This document shows, one piece after another, positions 8,555 through 21,899 of a stretch of 25,567 nucleotides of DNA; the first letter of the stretch is position 1, and the number at the start of each line of letters is the position of its first letter. The translations under genes were made by a program, and so were the position numbers. This stretch comes from a virus. Lineage: Duplodnaviria > Heunggongvirae > Uroviricota > Caudoviricetes. Location of the stretch: positions 1 through 25,567 of the IMG/VR virus record IMGVR_UViG_2925914267_000006; one strand, written 5' to 3'. The notes under the pieces were generated by a model. The model saw only the letters and a list, made by a program, of their open reading frames with translations. It ran no database searches and was not told the DNA's origin.

Positions 8555-9013
8555 TACGCCTCCTGCTTGTCGCGCAGCAGCTGAAACTCGCAGCTCTGTG
8601 GAATAGTCAGGTGGCAACCAATATTCATCGCCCAGGCTTCAACCTTACACAGGAAGACATACATCTCTCCGGTATCAAGATCGGAGGTATGGCGTAACGA
8701 CTGGATAGTGGTGATATCACCGGTTACGACATCAACCAGGTCTTTGGTTTCATAACCGAGATATGTGTGTTTGAGAGCATCTTTTACCCAAGCTGGAGTG
8801 GCGAACGTTTTACCCTTGCTGATGAGGTATTCACTGATTTCGCTGTACCACATGTGGCTGAGTGCATTCTGGGAAAGACTGCGTCTCTCGCGCCACGGTT
8901 TAAGCACCATGCGAAAGCATTTGCCGTCCTCCAGATAAGGCTGGATCTGCCGACCAATAGCGGTGAAGTTTGAGGTGTACTGGCAATAGCGGACACTACC
9001 ATTTGTTCTTTTT

Positions 9014-9832
9014 TTAAGCAGCCATCTGATGATATTTTTCCCTGAAGGCTGCCGGGGAGATATTCCCCAGACGAGAGTGACGACGCTGACGATTGTAGAA
9101 AATCTCAATGTATTCCCGTATTACTGAGATGGCTTCATCCCGGTTATTAAAACGATAGTGGCTCAGGCTCTCATTTTTCAGCGTTCCCCAGAAGCTTTCC
9201 ATCGGAGCGTTGTCGTAACAGTTACCTTTACGCGACATTGATGTTTTCAGACCAAACTGCTCCTGTATGACCCGGTAATCGTATGCGCAGTACTGTGAAC
9301 CTCGATCAGAGTGGTGGATTAGCCCGGCAGGTGGGCGCTGGCTCCTGAGCGCCATAAACAGGGCTTTACCTGTCAGCTCTTTTGTCATGCGCTCTCCCAT
9401 GGCGTAGCCGACAATTTCGCACGTATAAACATCTTTGATGCCAGCGAGGTACAACCATCCCTCCTGTGTGGCAACATACGTCAGGTCCGCCACCCAGACC
9501 TGATTTGGTGCTGTAGGAGCGAACGTCTGGTTCAGCAGATTTGGCGCAACTGGCAGATTGTGGTTCGAGTTCGTAGTCGCTCTGAACTTGCGTTTCTGCT
9601 TACAGCGTAGCCTTAGCTCCTTACGAAGACGTGCCAGTCGGTCACGACCAACGATGATGCCATTCTCTGCCAGCTCCGTCTGGAGCCGCCGGGTTCCATA
9701 TGTTTCGCGAGTGCGGATATGTGCCACCTTAATCTCCAGTTTTAGCCGCTCATCACTTTGTTTTCTGTCTGAGGGTTCATGCTGTACCCAGTTGTAATAA
9801 CCGCTCCTGGATACACCAAATACCTGACACAT
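9014..9832 (-). CDS. IS3-family transposase OrfB (DDE integrase core)
   Basis: 272-aa ORF with typical IS3-family OrfB motifs (WVADLTYV, HHSDRGSQY, YDNAPMESFWGTLK). Confidence 0.88.
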   Translation of the reverse strand: MCQVFGVSRSGYYNWVQHEPSDRKQSDERLKLEIKVAHIRTRETYGTRRLQTELAENGIIVGRDRLARLRKELRLRCKQKRKFRATTNSNHNLPVAPNLLNQTFAPTAPNQVWVADLTYVATQEGWLYLAGIKDVYTCEIVGYAMGERMTKELTGKALFMALRSQRPPAGLIHHSDRGSQYCAYDYRVIQEQFGLKTSMSRKGNCYDNAPMESFWGTLKNESLSHYRFNNRDEAISVIREYIEIFYNRQRRHSRLGNISPAAFREKYHQMAA

Positions 9833-9867
9833 CGCTTCAATGGGAAATTGTTGTCGCCATTGTTCGA

Positions 9868-10170
9868 TTAACGCGTATTTTTCAGCGACTCCTGTGCAAA
9901 ATACGCTGTTGCTTTTTTTAATATATCTCGCTCAAGGCGAGCTTCATTTAACGCCTTACGCAGTTGCAGAATTTCAGATTCCAGTTCAGCCACCGTGCGG
10001 GAACCAGGAGTACCGAGCCCTTTTCTGGCGGCGGTAACCCATTGCCCTAAAGTGCCTTCAGGAAGAGATAATCGGGAAGCGCCTTCACTGATCGAAAGTT
10101 GATTTTCAAGAACCGTTCTGACAGCTTCGGCTTTGAACTCTTTAGAGTAACGTTGGGTTTTTCTGCTCAT
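9868..10170 (-). CDS. IS3-family transposase OrfA (HTH plus leucine zipper)
   Basis: 100-aa ORF with an HTH and the C-terminal LERDILKKATAYFAQE zipper typical of IS3-family OrfA; an A AAA AAG slippery site lies near its 3' end. Confidence 0.85.
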   Translation of the reverse strand: MSRKTQRYSKEFKAEAVRTVLENQLSISEGASRLSLPEGTLGQWVTAARKGLGTPGSRTVAELESEILQLRKALNEARLERDILKKATAYFAQESLKNTR

Positions 10171-10309
10171 TATTAGCTCCTTCTGATGCCATTCTATTTC
10201 AGGAAGGAGTGTCCGTTAAACTCAGGCTACCTCAGTTACCGCGATGCAGTTTGATGCCATCTTGTGGGAAGTTCACGCTTCACCTCCGCAGAGATCAAAC
10301 GCTGGATGC

Positions 10310-10420
10310 AAAAAAACGCAGGTGCATTTCTGCATCTGTGGCAAGGCGAGGAGTTCAACTTGTGGTCGCATATAATTTCCCAATCATATGCGCAGAAGTC
10401 ACCGCAGGGTGTTCAGGCCA
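10310..10420 (-). repeat. Copy A of a roughly 110-bp repeat with two conserved boxes; contains a minus-strand rho-independent terminator
   Basis: Box 1 (aggtgcatttctgcatctgtg) and box 2 (gcgcagaagtcaccg..gttcaggc) are about 50 nt apart. On the minus strand box 1 forms a stem with a GAAA loop followed by a run of seven T, just upstream of the ninB-like start. Confidence 0.55.
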
Positions 10421-10446
10421 ACGGTGACGGTATTATTGCTTATTGA

Positions 10447-10698
10447 TTATGATTTTTCAATTTCATCAATAACCTTGTGATAGACAATACCAGAAAGGCC
10501 AACAGACAGTGGATGTTCATGAAATATTGGCTCATTTGCATAAACCCAATGCCCGACAAATTCTTCTGGGCTTGATATGTATAACTCACGAAGAAAATGG
10601 AGATCCCTCTCTACAACTAATTTCGTATCGTCCAAGAGCGCTGCATTTACGCTAGTTTTATGGCTGTGCATTAATTTACATTTGGTGAAGGACATCAT
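10447..10698 (-). CDS. Hypothetical 83-aa protein
   Basis: ORF downstream of the Bro-N-like gene on the same strand; no family recognised. Confidence 0.4.
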   Translation of the reverse strand: MMSFTKCKLMHSHKTSVNAALLDDTKLVVERDLHFLRELYISSPEEFVGHWVYANEPIFHEHPLSVGLSGIVYHKVIDEIEKS

Positions 10699-10757
10699 GG
10701 CAAAAGCTCCTTTTTCTTATGAATCCATATGTTAGCTAAATTGGAGAGACACAGTAG

Positions 10758-11375
10758 CTAACGTTGTTTAATAACATTCTGACGCAAATGTGGCAATTGT
10801 ACTCGACTCCACTTATCATCCTGCCACGGCTGGAATTTTACATGTGCCGTTTCTCTGGCGAGGATTGCTCGCGCTCTGGTGAGTATCTGGGGATATTCTT
10901 GCTCGATGGAAGTGAAGCGACCAGCTTCACGATGCTCCGCAACCTGAAGAAGAGGAGTAACGTTCTGGCAGGCGGTTAACATCGCATCCCCAGCTCGCCA
11001 TAACCAAGCAAGTGTGCAAAGTTCGTTATCAGTGAATTGTTTTGTGATCGGGGATTGTTGAACTTCTCGATCGAGAATATCCAGAACCCAGCGGCGGAAC
11101 TCTTTGGCTACAGGAGTTCGTGCAAACATGGCGATCAAATGAGCTCCGCGAAGGCTAAATACTCGAGACTCCTGCATTCCACGAGGGGTGGTCACTTTGA
11201 CCACCCTTGTCATCATATCTGTAAATTCATCTGAGTGACGAGAGTAAATGCGCTGAACTGCTTTATCGTCCGCATATTCCAGAGCTAAACCAACTTCAGT
11301 GGCAGTAAGCCAAATTCTGTTATTGTGGCAAATTGGGGTAAACGTCGTTTTGTGGAATGCTAATTGAGTAGTCAT
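10758..11375 (-). CDS. Bro-N / antirepressor-like DNA-binding protein
   Basis: The N-terminal pattern (FHKTTFTPICHNNRIWLTATEVGLALEYADDKAVQRIY...RVFSLRGAHLIAMFARTPVAKEFRRWVLDIL) resembles Bro-N domains of phage antirepressors. Family assignment is from recall only. Confidence 0.55.
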   Translation of the reverse strand: MTTQLAFHKTTFTPICHNNRIWLTATEVGLALEYADDKAVQRIYSRHSDEFTDMMTRVVKVTTPRGMQESRVFSLRGAHLIAMFARTPVAKEFRRWVLDILDREVQQSPITKQFTDNELCTLAWLWRAGDAMLTACQNVTPLLQVAEHREAGRFTSIEQEYPQILTRARAILARETAHVKFQPWQDDKWSRVQLPHLRQNVIKQR

Positions 11376-11530
11376 AGTTTCACCTCATCAGGTTAACCAT
11401 CACCACCAACGACGCCAATCGACTGGTGGTGAACTGTGCAAGGTTGGCGTAACCGGCTACTCAAATCCGGCGCTCCCGAAGAAGCCCTCACACAGCCCAC
11501 CATAATTTGGGCGTAGCCGTGCTTAGCGCA

Positions 11531-11552
11531 TAAAAAAACCGCTTAACGCGGT
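11531..11552 (-). terminator. Weak minus-strand terminator candidate upstream of the Bro-N-like gene
   Basis: On the minus strand ccgc-gttaa-gcgg is followed by a run of seven T; the stem is short. Confidence 0.3.
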
Positions 11553-11638
11553 ATGCGTTGAGTAGTATTCCGGGACGCCAATCCCGTGTGCCGATTTTGC
11601 GGCAACGCACAGAATATATCCCCAGATAAATCATGTCG

Positions 11639-11728
11639 TCAACCCCAGTAAATGGACACCATGATGATCACAGCCATAGCTGCTACAACAGTTACAACTA
11701 CCTCAGGCCAAAACATAACGATTTCCAT
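11639..11728 (-). CDS. Possible 29-aa hydrophobic peptide (MEIVMFWPEVVVTVVAAMAVIIMVSIYWG)
   Basis: Single predicted transmembrane helix with an AGGTGA-like ribosome-binding site close to the ATG. It is the 3' end of an 82-aa GTG-initiated ORF and may not be coding. Confidence 0.3.
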   Translation of the reverse strand: MEIVMFWPEVVVTVVAAMAVIIMVSIYWG

Positions 11729-11794
11729 ATCACCTTTAGCCGCCAGACGAATAGAGACTCCCAATTCTGGCTGTCGAAGTAAAACACCGAATGT

Positions 11795-11902
11795 AAAAAA
11801 TCGTAGGTGCATTTCTGCATCTGTGAATGGAGAAGATAGGTTGGATTGTATGTGCGCATAAACGTCCCCGTTTAGCGCAGAAGTCACCGGAGTTGTTCAG
11901 GC
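11795..11902 (-). repeat. Copy B of the same two-box repeat with a minus-strand terminator
   Basis: Box 1 and box 2 are conserved with copy A at the same ~50-nt spacing while the intervening sequence differs. The minus-strand stem is followed by a run of six T. Confidence 0.55.
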
Positions 11903-11986
11903 TCCGGCTTATTAATATTGCCTACTTACAATTAATTTTTCAACTGTTAGAAACTTATAATTAGCTGTCTCTTTGTAACTATCAAT

Positions 11987-12217
11987 TTAATTATTTTTCT
12001 TTAACTTGAAATTTCTTCCCATTGCTAGTGTTCTTCGAAGATTCGAATCATAAGCTGGTTGATAATATCTATCATAAAAATCCTTAATTGTCTGATGGTA
12101 AGTATCCAGCATCAAACCATAAAACCCCATGACCTTAAGATAATCCACCAAGGGAAATAAATAATCATCAGTCTGAACATCAGTATCAACATTATTTTTT
12201 TTGTTTTTTAACTTCAA
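11987..12217 (-). CDS. 76-aa ORF overlapping the 3' end of the STAND NTPase gene; possibly its frameshifted C-terminal extension
   Basis: TTG-initiated ORF in another frame relative to the NTPase; the two frames cross within an 8-nt A tract (T8 on the plus strand at about 12191-12198). AT-rich by eye. Confidence 0.35.
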   Translation of the reverse strand: MKLKNKKNNVDTDVQTDDYLFPLVDYLKVMGFYGLMLDTYHQTIKDFYDRYYQPAYDSNLRRTLAMGRNFKLKKNN

Positions 12218-13919
12218 ATTTGTATAAGTTTAACTCACCCTTATCCATCGTGCATGAAAAAAGGTCGTCAAAAATCAAATCAATTTTTGTCATAGGAACT
12301 CGTTCTTTTCCAGACATTATAGGTAGAATATCAATACCTAAGAGCGAACCTAATACAAAGTCGTAATGAAGCGAAATCACTGAGTCATTCGATGTCGAGT
12401 TGCCTTTGATAAATACTCTACTTAGTGCCGAGTCAAAAACATTCTCAACTCTCTCTCTCGTCATGTTTGCGACATCTACAACCCCCATATCACGAGAAGC
12501 TTTTATTGTGATTTCATCTATAAATGCTTTGGAATCTAGTGAATGTAAAAACAACATGAAGTTATCTAACTGTTCAGAGCATTTAATAGCCACCATAAGA
12601 TTTTCGTATATATCTTTTTTATACTCAATCGGTAAATTTGCTACCGCAAAAGCAGCATAAAATTCTTGCACTGATTTATGCAGAAAAACATACCTATTAT
12701 TTCCCTCAGGTTGGATAAGGCAAGTTATCTCAATAAGATCATCTATAAAGTTTGATGCATCTTCTTTAAGATAACCTTCTGTTTCAATAGCATCTTCAGC
12801 ATATCTAAGCAACTCCTCTCCCCAAAACTCAAATTTCTCCTCAATCAGTGCGTTATAGCAAATAGCTGAAAAACACAATTTAGCTTTTTCACCAATAATG
12901 TTTGATTTTTTCTCGCGCGTATATACTTTTATTTTATCATGCCTTGCATATAAGGTGTCAAAGAGGCTTCGATAAAACTCTATTATATTATTTGGAATAT
13001 CATTCATATAAGGATAACAATAATACAAAAGAGTAACTAAAATTGGATTGCAAATAGTTCCCTCAAGTTCTTCTTTATCACATAGTAAATCCGCCAAGAC
13101 TTTAAACGAGGCATCACTACTTGAGAATCTGTCATTTTTCGATAAAGAATGAAGAATACAAATCTTATCAGAAATATTTAGCTTATCTATAAAAATATTA
13201 TACACATCAGTAGTATAACATATATCTGTATTTGGTCTCGTTGTTGCGATAATTGGTGTGTTAAAATGATAATGAATGTTTTTTATTTCATTCATCATCA
13301 TAGTTCGCTCTTCATGTTTAACCTCATCAAATCCATCCAACATTAAAACGACTCTTTGGGATTGCAGTAATATTTTCAAGCTATCCTCTGAACACCCCAC
13401 ACCAAATGAATTAAGAATGTCTGCCAGATAAGCAATAATATTTGCATTCTTCACCCTTCTTAATTCAATAAAAAAAGGTATCCGTTCTGATTTTTTTATT
13501 TCCTCGCTAAACAACTTGCGTAAAATAGTACTTTTCCCTTGCCCCGCTATACCGACTATATTTACAATACCATGAAATGGTAAAGTGACCCCATCTTTTA
13601 TAACGACCTTGTCTTTATTAGATGCCACCTCAACAGTTAACGGATAATAAATATCATCTAAAAAAATATCATAATCAGCGTTGTGCAAAGTTCTCATTTT
13701 CAGAGATGGTAGCACATGCTTTCTTAAATAATTTTCTCTCCCGAGGGGATCATTTAATTGTTCGAGTATAACCTTGCCTTCATCTAGGTCCCTAGCCCAA
13801 GGTTTAGAGAGCAATACTTCTGTTATTTTTTCCGCAGCTTTTCCTACTGTGCTATTAATAATAGTCGCAAGAAACTCATCCATTTTTTCACCACATTCAT
13901 TAACCAATACGTGGTGCAT
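12192..13919 (-). CDS. STAND-class P-loop NTPase (NACHT-like), candidate antiphage or abortive-infection protein
   Basis: Walker A (GIAGQGKST), Walker B of NACHT type (VVLMLDGFDEV) and a TTRP motif (IIATTRP) at NACHT-like spacing. Both the gene and its flanks look AT-rich by eye. The start is uncertain: ATG at 13919 or 13883, with the track's TTG at 13940. Confidence 0.7.
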   Translation of the reverse strand: MHHVLVNECGEKMDEFLATIINSTVGKAAEKITEVLLSKPWARDLDEGKVILEQLNDPLGRENYLRKHVLPSLKMRTLHNADYDIFLDDIYYPLTVEVASNKDKVVIKDGVTLPFHGIVNIVGIAGQGKSTILRKLFSEEIKKSERIPFFIELRRVKNANIIAYLADILNSFGVGCSEDSLKILLQSQRVVLMLDGFDEVKHEERTMMMNEIKNIHYHFNTPIIATTRPNTDICYTTDVYNIFIDKLNISDKICILHSLSKNDRFSSSDASFKVLADLLCDKEELEGTICNPILVTLLYYCYPYMNDIPNNIIEFYRSLFDTLYARHDKIKVYTREKKSNIIGEKAKLCFSAICYNALIEEKFEFWGEELLRYAEDAIETEGYLKEDASNFIDDLIEITCLIQPEGNNRYVFLHKSVQEFYAAFAVANLPIEYKKDIYENLMVAIKCSEQLDNFMLFLHSLDSKAFIDEITIKASRDMGVVDVANMTRERVENVFDSALSRVFIKGNSTSNDSVISLHYDFVLGSLLGIDILPIMSGKERVPMTKIDLIFDDLFSCTMDKGELNLYKFEVKKQKK

Positions 13920-14271
13920 TCTTACAAGACTCAGTAACAATTGTCAATCATAGGTTTTCGCATGATTGCAAAACGCCATAAACAATTGTAGCACCATAAT
14001 TTTAAACACTATATAATATACAACCTTCCTACAAGCATTCAGTACATCGCTTAATCACAGGGCTTGAATATATAGTAAGGAATCGATATTAATCACCTCA
14101 TCTACTTTAAACATCTTACACACCTATAATTTATAATAGTCAACACGAGGTCATCATATTAAACATGCAATTACAAACATTCATTTTTATATAAATTTTC
14201 ATGATTTAACCGTAGAGCGACGGTAATAAATTTCATATACAAGGATTTAAGCTCCCATACGTTTTCTATTA

Positions 14272-14451
14272 TTAAAAATAACATACCGTTCGCCAGACCT
14301 TACCATCAATGACCAGGATTCCTGCCCGCGCCATTTTTGCCGCAGCCTGATTTATGCTGGTTAATGTCACACCTGTTGTCGCAGCAACGTCCGGCGCACA
14401 GAAGCTCTTGTGCGTCCCCAGGTAATGAATAATTGCTTCTTTTCCCGTCAT
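14272..14451 (-). pseudogene. ren: Truncated ren (59 codons, lambda Ren is 96 aa)
   Basis: Hand translation gives MTGKEAIIHYLGTHKSFCAPDVAATTGVTLTSINQAAAKMARAGILVIDGKVWRTVCYF*, matching the N-terminal part of lambda Ren. The ATG overlaps the P stop, and the frame ends where the AT-rich island begins. Confidence 0.75.
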
Positions 14452-18925: not shown

Positions 18926-19202
18926 AAGTTCATCGCAACAACACAACGATACGGCAACTACCTGATTCACCGTTGCGATGACCGCTTAGATCCGCAGTTT
19001 GAATTTCAGCAGGCTTCGGGGAGTGCGAGGGGTGAAACGGACGCGTGAACGTCGGTGTGACCAGCTGAAATTAACTCAACATTTCATACCTTAGTCGCTT
19101 CAACGAGGCGGCTTAGTTATGACAACCGGCGGCCATCCACCGCCTGAATACGCGCAGAAGTCTCTATATGTTCAGCAGCCCAGCTTACGGGCAGGAGTTT
19201 TT

Positions 19203-19409
19203 ATGGTTCATCAACATTATGGAACGCAGACCGTTAATCGAGGTGCGGTCATGCCAGGAATGCTGGTCAAACACAAAGATGGTACCTGGACTGCATCAGC
19301 TAATTTACGCGGACGGCTTTATCTGCATCGCGGCATCGAGCGCACTTATACCCGTGATTTGCTCGTGGAAGTTTTTCTCGACGGACGCGGTAACGGCCTG
19401 AATCACTAA
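19203..19409 (+). CDS. Hypothetical 68-aa protein, first gene of the leftward early operon (kil position)
   Basis: ATG preceded by AGGAG with a 7-nt spacer, directly upstream of gam. It does not resemble lambda Kil, cIII or N. Confidence 0.45.
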
Positions 19410-20685: not shown

Positions 20686-21012
20686 ATGACTAAAAATACT
20701 CGTTTTTCCCCCGAAGTCCGTCAGCGGGCGATTCGTATGGTTCTGGAAAGTCAGGATGAATATGACTCACAGTGGGCGGCAATTTGTTCCATTGCCCCAA
20801 AGATTGGCTGTACGCCGGAGACTCTGCGTGTCTGGGTTCGCCAGCATGAGCGGGATACCGGGGGCGGTGATGGTGGGCTCACCAGTGCTGAACGTCAGCG
20901 TCTGAAAGAGCTGGAACGTGAAAATCGTGAACTGCGCCGCAGTAACGATATCCTTCGCCAGGCTTCCGCTTATTTTGCGAAGGCGGAGTTCGACCGCCTC
21001 TGGAAAAAATGA
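20686..21012 (+). CDS. IS629 OrfA
   Basis: 108-aa protein [42 protein letters not shown]... matching IS629-group OrfA as recalled. Confidence 0.88.
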
Positions 21013-21899
21013 TGCCACTGCTGGATAAGCTGCGTGAGCAGTACGGGGTCGGACCGGTATGCAGCGAACTGCATATTGCCCCGTCAACGTATTACCATTG
21101 TCAGCAACAGCGACATCATCCGGATAAACGCAGTGCCCGTGCGCAGCACGACGACTGGCTGAAGAGAGAGATACAGCGCGTATACGATGAAAATCATCAG
21201 GTGTACGGTGTGCGTAAAGTCTGGCGTCAGTTGTTACGGGAAGGAATCAGGGTAGCCAGATGTACAGTGGCGCGCCTCATGGCGGTTATGGGACTTGCCG
21301 GTGTTCTCCGGGGTAAAAAGGTCCGCACTACCGTCAGCCGGAAAGCCGTTGCCGCAGGCGACCGCGTAAACCGTCAGTTTGTGGCAGAACGACCTGACCA
21401 GCTGTGGGTGGCTGATTTTACTTACGTCAGCACATGGCAGGGCTTCGTCTATGTGGCGTTTATCATTGATGTGTTTGCCGGATACATCGTGGGGTGGCGG
21501 GTCTCATCGTCTATGGAAACGACATTCGTGCTGGATGCGCTGGAGCAGGCGTTGTGGGCCCGTCGTCCGTCTGGCACCATCCATCACAGCGATAAAGGCT
21601 CTCAGTATGTGTCACTGGCCTATACGGAGCGACTAAAAGAAGCCGGATTACTGGCATCAACAGGGAGTACAGGCGACTCGTATGACAACGCGATGGCTGA
21701 GAGCATCAATGGTCTTTACAAAGCGGAGGTAATACACCGTAAGAGCTGGAAAAACCGTGCAGAAGTGGAACTGGCCACACTAACGTGGGTGGACTGGTAT
21801 AACAATCGACGATTGCTGGGAAGGCTGGGCCATACTCCTCCGGCAGAAGCAGAAAAAGCTTATTATGCTTCCATCGGAAACGATGATCTGGCAGCCTGA
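21009..21899 (+). CDS. IS629 OrfB (DDE transposase core)
   Basis: 296-aa protein with IS3-family OrfB motifs ([31 protein letters not shown]). Confidence 0.88.

Follow-up and report, generated by a model that had tools for sequence, protein, structure and literature searches.

Two direct repeats in a 25,567-nucleotide (nt) stretch of viral DNA (Caudoviricetes; IMG/VR record IMGVR_UViG_2925914267_000006, positions 1 to 25,567; hereafter the window) are, as judged by homology and covariation, copies of a common and uncharacterised RNA leader of lambda-like prophages. The leader combines a promoter-like region, four hairpins (hp1 to hp4) and a short upstream open reading frame (uORF) whose stop codon overlaps the start of the next gene. 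Copy A is complete and stands directly before ninB, and copy B lies upstream of a small cargo block that the two copies bracket. We regard it as probable, with considerable room for doubt, that the leader acts in cis as a modular, translation-coupled terminator or attenuator gate before the first nin gene and has been reused at mosaic joints. This ~190-nt leader fronts the ninB-rusA-Q block in about half of sequenced Escherichia coli genomes, belongs to no Rfam family and has never been treated as an RNA element. Should the proposed role be correct, the leader would be a control point equivalent to the lambda terminator tR2 for the large 82/phi80-type group of lambdoid prophages, and it would mark a very active cargo hotspot between ren and ninB that houses defence genes, antirepressor modules and bacteriocins. 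It would also supply a concrete reason for the silence in K-12 of DLP12 genes such as rusA. The rusA gene of DLP12 is silent in K-12 unless an insertion sequence (IS) supplies a promoter downstream of the leader.

Two copies of one leader on the operon strand

The operon strand is the minus strand of the window and reads, in order, P, a ren fragment, the cargo, ninB/ybcN, ninE and rusA. A repeat search of the window returned a 44-nt direct repeat of 86% identity (10297-10340 and 11782-11825) and a second direct repeat of 18 nt and 94% identity (10390-10407 and 11875-11892), both with the same start-to-start offset of 1485 nt. The 19-nt core of the first conserved string, box 1, has exactly two occurrences in the window, both of them on the minus strand, where chance alone would give 0.01. 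A profile made for nhmmer from 122 homologues, the window itself being left out, likewise detects exactly two copies, both on the minus strand, at 10280-10467 (E=5e-50) and 11773-11944 (E=1.7e-41). Individual features of both copies and of the cargo are listed in Table 1.

An earlier note on this DNA had proposed two copies of a two-box element of ~110 nt each. The equal offset of the direct repeats and the profile matches bear out the two copies but not their size, the units spanning ~170-190 nt by profile. The note had placed copy A where lambda has tR2, directly upstream of ninB, and copy B upstream of the block encoding a hydrophobic peptide, a Bro-N protein and an 83-amino-acid (aa) product; both placements hold, and the suggestion that the copies are structured RNA elements on the operon strand is supported. 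Box 2, by contrast, is no unit of its own; it takes in the hp1 3′ arm, a linker and the base of hp2. The sequence between the boxes had been said to differ between the copies, and it does so because each copy carries its own self-complementary allele of hp2 and different N-terminal uORF codons; read against the alignment, this difference between copies A and B is covariation. The note had also allowed that the boxes might be the ends of a larger repeat family, and they prove to be parts of a far larger one.

The note had proposed to look for the boxes in other lambdoid genomes. Two independent sequence anchors were used to retrieve homologues from IMG/VR, and each yielded at least 120 contigs with the leader. 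By megablast, 1318 of 5426 complete E. coli genomes match copy A and 2825 of 5426 match copy B, K-12 derivatives included, and about half of complete E. coli genomes carry the leader. Family members are present in DLP12 of K-12 (ylcH), in phage 82 (orf33), in phi80 and in HK639, with phage 82 and phi80 having one copy each, directly upstream of a ninB-type gene. Other prophage hosts with the leader are Enterobacter, Citrobacter, Klebsiella, Huaxiibacter, Siccibacter and Phytobacter; it was not found at ybcN-anchored loci of Pantoea and Rosenbergiella. Neither copy matches any family in Rfam 15, even at E<=10, and a literature search on ylcH, orf33 and tR2-like elements returned nothing beyond a mention in an expression table.

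Covarying hairpins and invariant loops

Copy A folds with a predicted energy of -59.4 kcal/mol (z=-4.4). Covariation was tested for hp1, hp2 and hp3, while hp4 is supported by the recurrence of distinct complementary versions. Box 1 corresponds to hp3. In the family alignment 98.4% of its cells are paired, five of eight pairs are changed on both sides, and 0/500 shuffles reach any of five measures. These compensatory substitutions back exactly the hairpin that had been drawn for box 1, a stem capped by a GAAA loop with a T run behind it. A longer hairpin in which the T run serves as the 3′ arm is thermodynamically favoured (-13.5 kcal/mol), but it was rejected as the conserved structure, as it shows no covariation and is equalled by 109-215 of 500 shuffles.

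The compensated variants of hp3 include GCUGAAAAGC in Siccibacter, GCUUAACGGC, GCUUAUCGGC and GCUUAGCGGC in four viral contigs, and CACCG...CCGG in one contig. These variants turn the peptide motif QMQKCTC into QMLKSTC, QMLNGTC or PMQKCTG. Because the compensatory changes alter the peptide, what is conserved in box 1 is, on this comparative evidence, the RNA structure and not the peptide. G.U pairs are frequent in the leader stems, and the structure is therefore specific to the operon strand.

In hp1, 54 stem versions of 8-13 bp surround the conserved loop YCUGAACAM, with energies of -14 to -17 kcal/mol. RNAalifold recovers the hairpin, and its inner pairs are changed on both sides in 25-27 sequences. 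An invariant linker forms the core of box 2 and leads into hp2, for which 13 distinct versions are available: all six inner pairs (6/6) covary, and 97.4% are paired against 63.7% in shuffles (0/500). The loop of hp2 is GGGA in all aligned versions, a single GGAA copy in locus L103 standing apart. Across the family the Shine-Dalgarno sequence GGGGA sits in this loop and the uORF start codon, AUG or GUG, in the 3′ arm. Copy A follows the same plan, with its GGGA loop as the uORF Shine-Dalgarno sequence and the uORF AUG (10371-10369) in the 3′ arm. The stretch from linker to hp2 in copy B is identical to that of phage 82 and K-12. A C/A-rich stretch separates hp2 from hp3.

The earlier note had further suggested that box 2 could pair with box 1 as an alternative structure. 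The complementarity is there, since the 7-bp pairing of linker and hp3 is possible in 94.7% of cells, but covariation is lacking: no pair is changed on both sides, and hp3 loop variants break the pairing without compensation.

Upstream of hp1, family homology sets in abruptly at a -35-like TTGATT, and 17 nt on lies a -10-like CATAAT. Variants of the latter keep A2 and T6, with change limited to tolerated positions (xATAxT). Promoter activity is predicted from this pattern; the SMRT-Cappable-seq supplements hold no entry for the leader locus. The promoter-like region of copy A contains a partial TTGA..TCAA palindrome and overlaps the stop codon of the 83-aa open reading frame (ORF). That of copy B is more degenerate, the ATCAA half of the palindrome having been lost, and the profile alignment begins there at 11944. 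In the family the -35-like TTGAT and a conserved ATCAA make up TTGAT-N8-ATCAA (10441-10460 in the window); one subgroup has ATCA-N11-TGAT instead, and phi80 has the variant TTGATA...TATCAA, in which both halves are altered together. The palindrome could be an operator, or it could form an AU-rich RNA hairpin (hp0) on read-through transcripts. Binding by FNR or CRP was set aside, as the spacing is presumably wrong for either consensus.

A small reading frame joined to ninB

The family uORF is 31-33 codons long. In copy A its stop codon UGA overlaps the GUG start of ninB/ybcN (GUGA), and the same kind of overlap, AUGA or GUGA, is found in 98 of 103 distinct leader-gene combinations, all five exceptions being B-type copies. 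The gene that follows encodes a YbcN-type NinB, a lambda-type NinB or, at one locus, the Q antiterminator. Both hp3 and hp4 of copy A lie within the uORF. Across the family hp4 occurs as 42 variants in three sequence types, all of which pair as stems of 8-13 bp with energies of -14 to -15 kcal/mol; the Shine-Dalgarno sequence of the following gene makes up the 3′ arm, which extends as far as the start codon. Copy A accordingly shows both features expected of a coupling leader, overlapping stop and start codons and a sequestered downstream ribosome-binding site, while copy B lacks the overlap. This arrangement suggests that translation of ninB is coupled to that of the uORF.

An IS3-family element of 1264 bp at 8970-10233, flanked by a 3-bp target duplication, breaks ninB/ybcN of the window after codon 14, directly downstream of copy A; its OrfA (9868-10170) and OrfB (9014-9832) are on the minus strand, and we take the element to be IS600-like. 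E. coli 2014C-4135 carries an identical locus without the IS in ninB, and there the uORF has been called by PGAP as WP_224083675.

Termination and the proposed gate

The earlier note had interpreted box 1 as a rho-independent terminator. Its hairpin and U tract are real, with 4-7 U within 8 nt after the stem in 87 of 87 family members. The stem is weak, however, and hp3 is not a free-standing terminator, being enclosed in a conserved translated-type uORF (phage 82 orf33, K-12 ylcH). In vivo, ribosomes are reported to repress a terminator that is placed only a few bp from a translated ORF (PMC4824070); a terminator inside the uORF would therefore be a translation-dependent gate. It is plausible that the leader bears a terminator, and the hairpin and U tract make box 1 a candidate site of termination.

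The sole experimental RNA 3′-end data found for a leader homologue come from Term-seq in K-12. The 3′ ends map to 572349/572350(+), at GACUUCUG^CGC, with 19 nt between them and the downstream ylcH AUG, and were seen in two growth conditions with low read counts (PMC7815308, supplementary files 1 and 3). They fall in box 2, 5-6 nt past the hp1 stem, at the counterparts of window positions 10393 and 11878, and not at box 1. In a separate study, ylcH RNA is up ~4-fold (log2 2.03) under microaerobic relative to aerobic conditions, and ybcN is not listed (PMC8910356, Table 2). This induction hints at production and regulation of a short leader transcript in the cryptic prophage DLP12.

We propose that RNA polymerase lacking antitermination would halt at hp1 and/or hp3. 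Ribosomes translating the uORF would melt hp3 and so suppress termination there; the same ribosomes would go on to open hp4 and re-initiate at the start codon of ninB that overlaps the uORF stop. Transcription read-through and uORF translation would in this way together gate the expression of ninB and the genes downstream. At mosaic joints the leader would offer a stretch of homology, and because it is conserved between otherwise unrelated flanks it appears to be a recurrent recombination joint. Copy B would have arrived jointly with the hydrophobic-peptide ORF and the isrK-C4-antirepressor module, leaving two copies that bracket the cargo.

Several observations weigh against this proposal. 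As an intrinsic terminator hp3 is weak: the family mean is -7.1 kcal/mol, two A.C mismatches are conserved, and copies A and B reach -7.3 and -4.4 kcal/mol compared with -17.7 kcal/mol for lambda tR2. The U tract is interrupted in many members (AUUUUCUG, AUUCUUUG). The K-12 Term-seq tables contain no 3′ end at hp3, at a locus that is poorly expressed and where the tract is degenerate (AAUUCUUUG). Nor is hp1 a typical terminator, having a loop of 9-11 nt and, in place of a proper U tract, UUCUG, the stem being followed by UUCUGCGC; its 3′ end could for that reason reflect processing or an exonuclease stop instead of termination. Furthermore, hp1 begins 2-4 nt past the promoter-like -10, and a transcript started from that promoter would miss part of the covarying stem. 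Finally, homology is lacking where the 3′ end of the cargo meets copy A. A simple homologous exchange at the repeat is therefore insufficient by itself, and an illegitimate event or the import of a ready-made unit of leader and cargo is also needed.

Competing explanations

A first alternative is that the leader is an independent gene for a trans-acting small RNA of ~35-120 nt ending after hp1 or hp3, with the uORF incidental or the RNA serving both functions. The conservation pattern of the -35- and -10-like elements is typical of promoters, the arrangement of hairpins and U tract resembles that of a small RNA, and ylcH RNA is detected and microaerobically induced in E. coli (PMC8910356, Table 2). 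The near-universal overlap of stop and start codons and the presence of hp4 nevertheless bind the element in cis to the next gene, and we consider a trans-acting role unlikely. The leader is also not among the described prophage small RNAs: identity with AgvB/AsxR or Pas was rejected, as these sit in the late region downstream of PR′ or beside lysis genes.

A candidate target for such an RNA, the 5′ untranslated region of kil in the leftward operon, could pair with the hp1 loop and linker. The exact linker 11-mer occurs three times in the window, always on the minus strand. The third occurrence, GACTTCTGCGC at 19152-19162, has CTGAACA 6 nt upstream, and the whole site spans 19151-19176. It lies in the plus-strand PL (leftward) operon, 28-53 nt before kil (ATG at 19204, plus strand), directly past a GC hairpin that is annotated as a terminator in HK639. 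Since the 11-mer and CTGAACA are on the same DNA strand as in the leaders, the PL transcript is perfectly complementary (11+7 nt) to the hp1 loop and linker, the two leader motifs that do not covary. The 11-mer is kept at the equivalent places in HK639 and in locus L036, in the latter with one G.U-compatible change, despite differing spacers. The kil-side site is nonetheless present in only 10 of 27 leader loci having enough upstream sequence, and the carriers of leader and site are the same closely related phages, so that their co-occurrence is not independent evidence. When RNAduplex was run across the genome with the entire hp1-linker probe, the result was uninformative, the probe having taken in paired stem sequence. 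The site was also considered as a third, diverged copy of the leader and rejected, the profile hidden Markov model being blind to it even at E<=100.

From this complementarity one may conjecture that, beyond any gating in cis, the two invariant single-stranded motifs of the leader, CUGAACA in the hp1 loop and the linker GACUUCUGCGC, pair in trans with the PL transcript near kil, and that early-right and early-left transcripts regulate each other; we hold this to be distinctly unlikely. If it were true, trans pairing would touch hp1 termination, or the translation or stability of the toxic Kil, by way of a widespread RNA that is also present in K-12.

A second alternative treats the repeats as mere recombination linkers or boundary sequences, kept alike by exchange and devoid of a regulatory role. 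Conservation does begin abruptly at the -35, both flanks are mosaic, two copies bracket cargo in at least eight loci, and the leader of phage 82 looks like a B/A recombinant. Homogenisation by exchange predicts neither the compensatory changes in hp1-hp3 nor distinct complementary versions of hp4, nor does it predict invariant loops on variable stems or a reading frame whose stop/start overlap is kept across three different 3′ ends, which renders this account quite improbable.

It is more doubtful still, and in our view very improbable, that box 1 is kept for the core (SQMQKCTC-FLH) of the small protein YlcH/orf33 and that the hairpins are by-products. Nearly all complete copies keep the ORF open, synonymous variation is seen at the Leu codon that follows box 1 (CUG, UUG, UUA, CUU, CUA), and the gene is annotated in K-12, phage 82 and RefSeq. 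Yet box 1 variants replace two or three motif residues with the base pairs left intact, a divergent Phytobacter copy is devoid of the motif with frame and stop/start overlap kept, and B-type copies tolerate a stop codon or a frame run-on. Nearly every residue moreover overlaps an RNA constraint (hp2, hp3, the U tract, or hp4 with its Shine-Dalgarno sequence), and the peptide has no match in Pfam, NCBIfam or PHROG.

That hp3 is a boxB-like nut site, its GNRA-type loop bound by an N-like antiterminator and a boxA-like CUCUCUU lying upstream, has in its favour the GAAA loop on a short stem and CUCUCUUC placed 11 nt upstream in 82-type copies, but it can be given next to no credence, as the phi80-type copies, which are the majority, lack the boxA-like string, the loop can become UAAC, UAUC or UAGC, the element lies within the uORF, and the same leader is found in HK639, which we take to use RNA-mediated, N-independent antitermination.

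Copy B, the cargo and mosaic joints

By alignment, copy B is a 5′ partial copy that retains the promoter-like region and hp1-hp3, has a decayed uORF and lacks hp4. Relative to copy A its hp1 is shorter and its hp3 weaker. Different single defects mark other B-type copies, among them a UAG stop codon within box 1. The cargo behind copy B is, from its Rfam, Pfam and PHROG matches, an isrK/C4/antirepressor immunity module of a kind already known. Its isrK/c4-a1b1 RNA scores 60.7 bits with RF01394 and 37.8 bits with RF03163, the latter under its gathering score of 46.7 bits. In the other loci where a B-type copy lies upstream of a normal copy, isrK and C4 are directly behind it in 6/6; in Stx phages the isrK-C4 segment is present without the leader. 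Duplication around this module is ordinary mosaic-phage biology. The claim that the block entered by recombination at a terminator element stands in part: the arrangement of upstream copy and cargo recurs in other prophages and fits a reusable junction, which suggests a route of acquisition, while the non-homologous 3′ junction speaks against so simple an event.

The leader of phage 82 has a 5′ half like that of copy B and a 3′ half like that of copy A, a hybrid that a crossover within box 1 would produce. At locus L103 (6840-11919), a leader and ninB are followed by a tail-fibre-like gene, an S-type pyocin/cloacin nuclease with its immunity gene, and a second complete leader before Q. The uORF stop of this second leader overlaps the start of the Q antiterminator gene. 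Judged by its predicted genes, L103 shows that ninB is not the only gene that may follow the leader and that bacteriocin genes, too, may form the cargo between two copies.

The 29-aa hydrophobic peptide ORF of the cargo is shortened to 6 codons in some relatives. The 57-aa family phrog_4612 corresponds to ORF 11639-11809 (minus strand), which runs from an AUG in box 1 of copy B (GAAAUGCACC) to the end of the 29-aa peptide; gene callers thus fuse part of the leader to the peptide.

Table 1. Features of the two leader copies and of the cargo between them (window coordinates).
Feature	Positions	Strand	Description and basis
Copy A promoter-like region	10432-10460	-	-35 TTGAAA 10460-10455, -10 AATAAT 10437-10432; promoter scan, 10/12 matches
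Copy A hp1	10398-10428	-	Stem GUCACCG/CGGUGAC plus inner pairs, conserved loop CCUGAACAC; -14.1 kcal/mol
Copy A linker	10390-10400	-	GACUUCUGCGC, core of box 2, invariant; 10393 is the counterpart of the K-12 RNA 3′ end
Copy A hp2	10367-10392	-	11-bp stem CGCAUAUGAUU / AAUUAUAUGCG, GGGA tetraloop 10381-10378; -12.9 kcal/mol
Copy A uORF	10273-10371	-	32 codons; homologue of phage 82 orf33 / K-12 YlcH; ORF list, phage 82 annotation
Copy A hp3 (box 1)	10317-10340	-	CACAGAUGCA-GAAA-UGCACCUGCG, 8 pairs, two A.C mismatches, GNRA loop; -7.3 kcal/mol
Copy A seven-U run	10310-10316	-	Directly after hp3; from sequence; terminator-like scan also matches in another register (10337-10314)
Copy A hp4	10275-10302	-	3′ arm holds ninB Shine-Dalgarno GGAGGU and reaches the start codon; -14.2 kcal/mol, in minimum-energy fold
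ninB/ybcN, first 14 codons	10234-10276	-	GUG start 10276; cut by insertion sequence, remainder resumes at ~8969; compared with uninterrupted 2014C-4135 locus
Copy B promoter-like region	11914-11943	-	-35 TTGAAA, 18-nt spacer, -10 AATATT; promoter scan, 9/12 matches
Copy B hp1	11886-11908	-	7-bp stem GCCGGAG/CUCCGGU, loop CCUGAACAA; -10.7 kcal/mol, in minimum-energy fold
Copy B linker and hp2	11854-11885	-	Linker GACUUCUGCGC; GCGC-UAAACG-GGGA-CGUUUA-U-GCGC; AUG 11859-11857; hp2 -12.1 kcal/mol; 11878 is the counterpart of the K-12 RNA 3′ end
Copy B hp3 and U6 tract	11795-11825	-	hp3 11825-11802, U6 11800-11795; -4.4 kcal/mol; G-to-A change weakens lower stem
Copy B degenerate uORF	11698-11859	-	Frame continues to 53 codons; hp4 and a coupled downstream start are absent
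Cargo: hydrophobic peptide ORF	11639-11728	-	29 aa (MEIVMFWPEVVVTVVAAMAVIIMVSIYWG); phrog_4612, E=1.7e-16, no assigned function
Cargo: promoter-like site and isrK / c4-a1b1 RNA	11532-11642	-	Promoter-like site 11642-11613, then RNA 11604-11532 with its own terminator; Rfam, promoter and terminator scans
Cargo: C4-type antisense RNA	11422-11507	-	Rfam RF01695, 72.4 bits
Cargo: antirepressor	10758-11375	-	205 aa, Bro-N and P22_AR_C; Pfam PF02498, PF10548; PHROG anti-repressor Ant
Cargo: 83-aa ORF	10447-10698	-	No assigned function; phrog_9613, E=1.2e-41; RefSeq hypothetical

Relation to known systems

The leader is widespread and itself uncharacterised, and it would be of a kind already known, namely uORF-coupled, terminator-containing leaders. 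Its nearest positional counterpart is lambda tR2, which likewise stands directly upstream of ninB in the rightward early operon and pairs a hairpin and U tract with a nearby translated ORF. Lambda, however, has one strong canonical hairpin (UUUUUAUUU; -17.7 kcal/mol) in the intergenic gap between ren and ninB, whereas the leader has four hairpins, a uORF and overlapping stop and start codons, and its U-tract hairpin is weak (-7.3 kcal/mol). The ren-ninB spacer of lambda shows no sequence similarity to the leader, and lambda is absent among the blastn matches.

The orf33 region of phage 82 (GenBank X92588, 1996) and the ylcH-ybcN region of DLP12 in K-12 belong to the same family and share hp1, the putative -35 and -10, the small ORF and the overlap with orf151/ybcN. 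X92588 annotates a putative -35 and -10, a ribosome-binding site, orf33 and an inverted repeat, which corresponds to hp1 and is labelled a 'possible regulator-binding site'. These records each describe one copy, with descriptive annotation and no assigned RNA structure, coupling hairpin or function, whereas in the window there are two, of which one is partial and stands before a different module.

The cargo between the copies is of the module type represented by isrK-orf45-anrP of Gifsy-1 and immI of P1 (c4-icd-ant). In Gifsy-1, translation of the antirepressor depends on a uORF and translational coupling (PMC4825925), the same logic as suggested here for the leader; a repeated leader is not part of the described isrK and immI modules. 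Leader-peptide attenuators of the pyrBI type, in which a ribosome close behind the polymerase suppresses a terminator within the leader ORF, resemble the leader in having a short leader ORF that holds a terminator-like hairpin and U tract, where ribosome occupancy would decide read-through. Unlike them, the leader has no covariation-backed antiterminator pairing and no evident regulatory codons. Its additional hairpin, which sequesters the Shine-Dalgarno sequence, and the overlap of stop and start codons suggest that the main output is translational coupling.

Morons and boundary sequences of mosaic lambdoid genomes, reportedly described by Juhala et al. in 2000 and Clark et al. in 2001, offer a further parallel: the leader is a conserved short island between unrelated modules, and the cargo has its own promoter-like and terminator-like signals in the ren-ninB hotspot. 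In contrast to boundary sequences, the island is itself a structured, covarying RNA with a predicted coding and coupling function.

Other features of the neighbourhood

Between a truncated ren (14272-14451) and copy B lie a NACHT-domain NTPase gene at 12192-13940 (minus strand) and a 76-aa ORF at 11987-12217. PADLOC returned no match for the NACHT protein or the cargo proteins. In the relative PhiR26_1 the same place between ren and ninB is occupied by the defence gene PD-lambda-1, and the NACHT protein may be an undescribed defence candidate. A second insertion sequence lies in the recombination-gene (bet/gam) region, where Rfam identifies an ALIL pseudoknot at 20967-21083 (plus strand, 121.5 bits), the frameshift signal of IS3-family elements, together with ORFs at 20686-21012 and 21009-21899.

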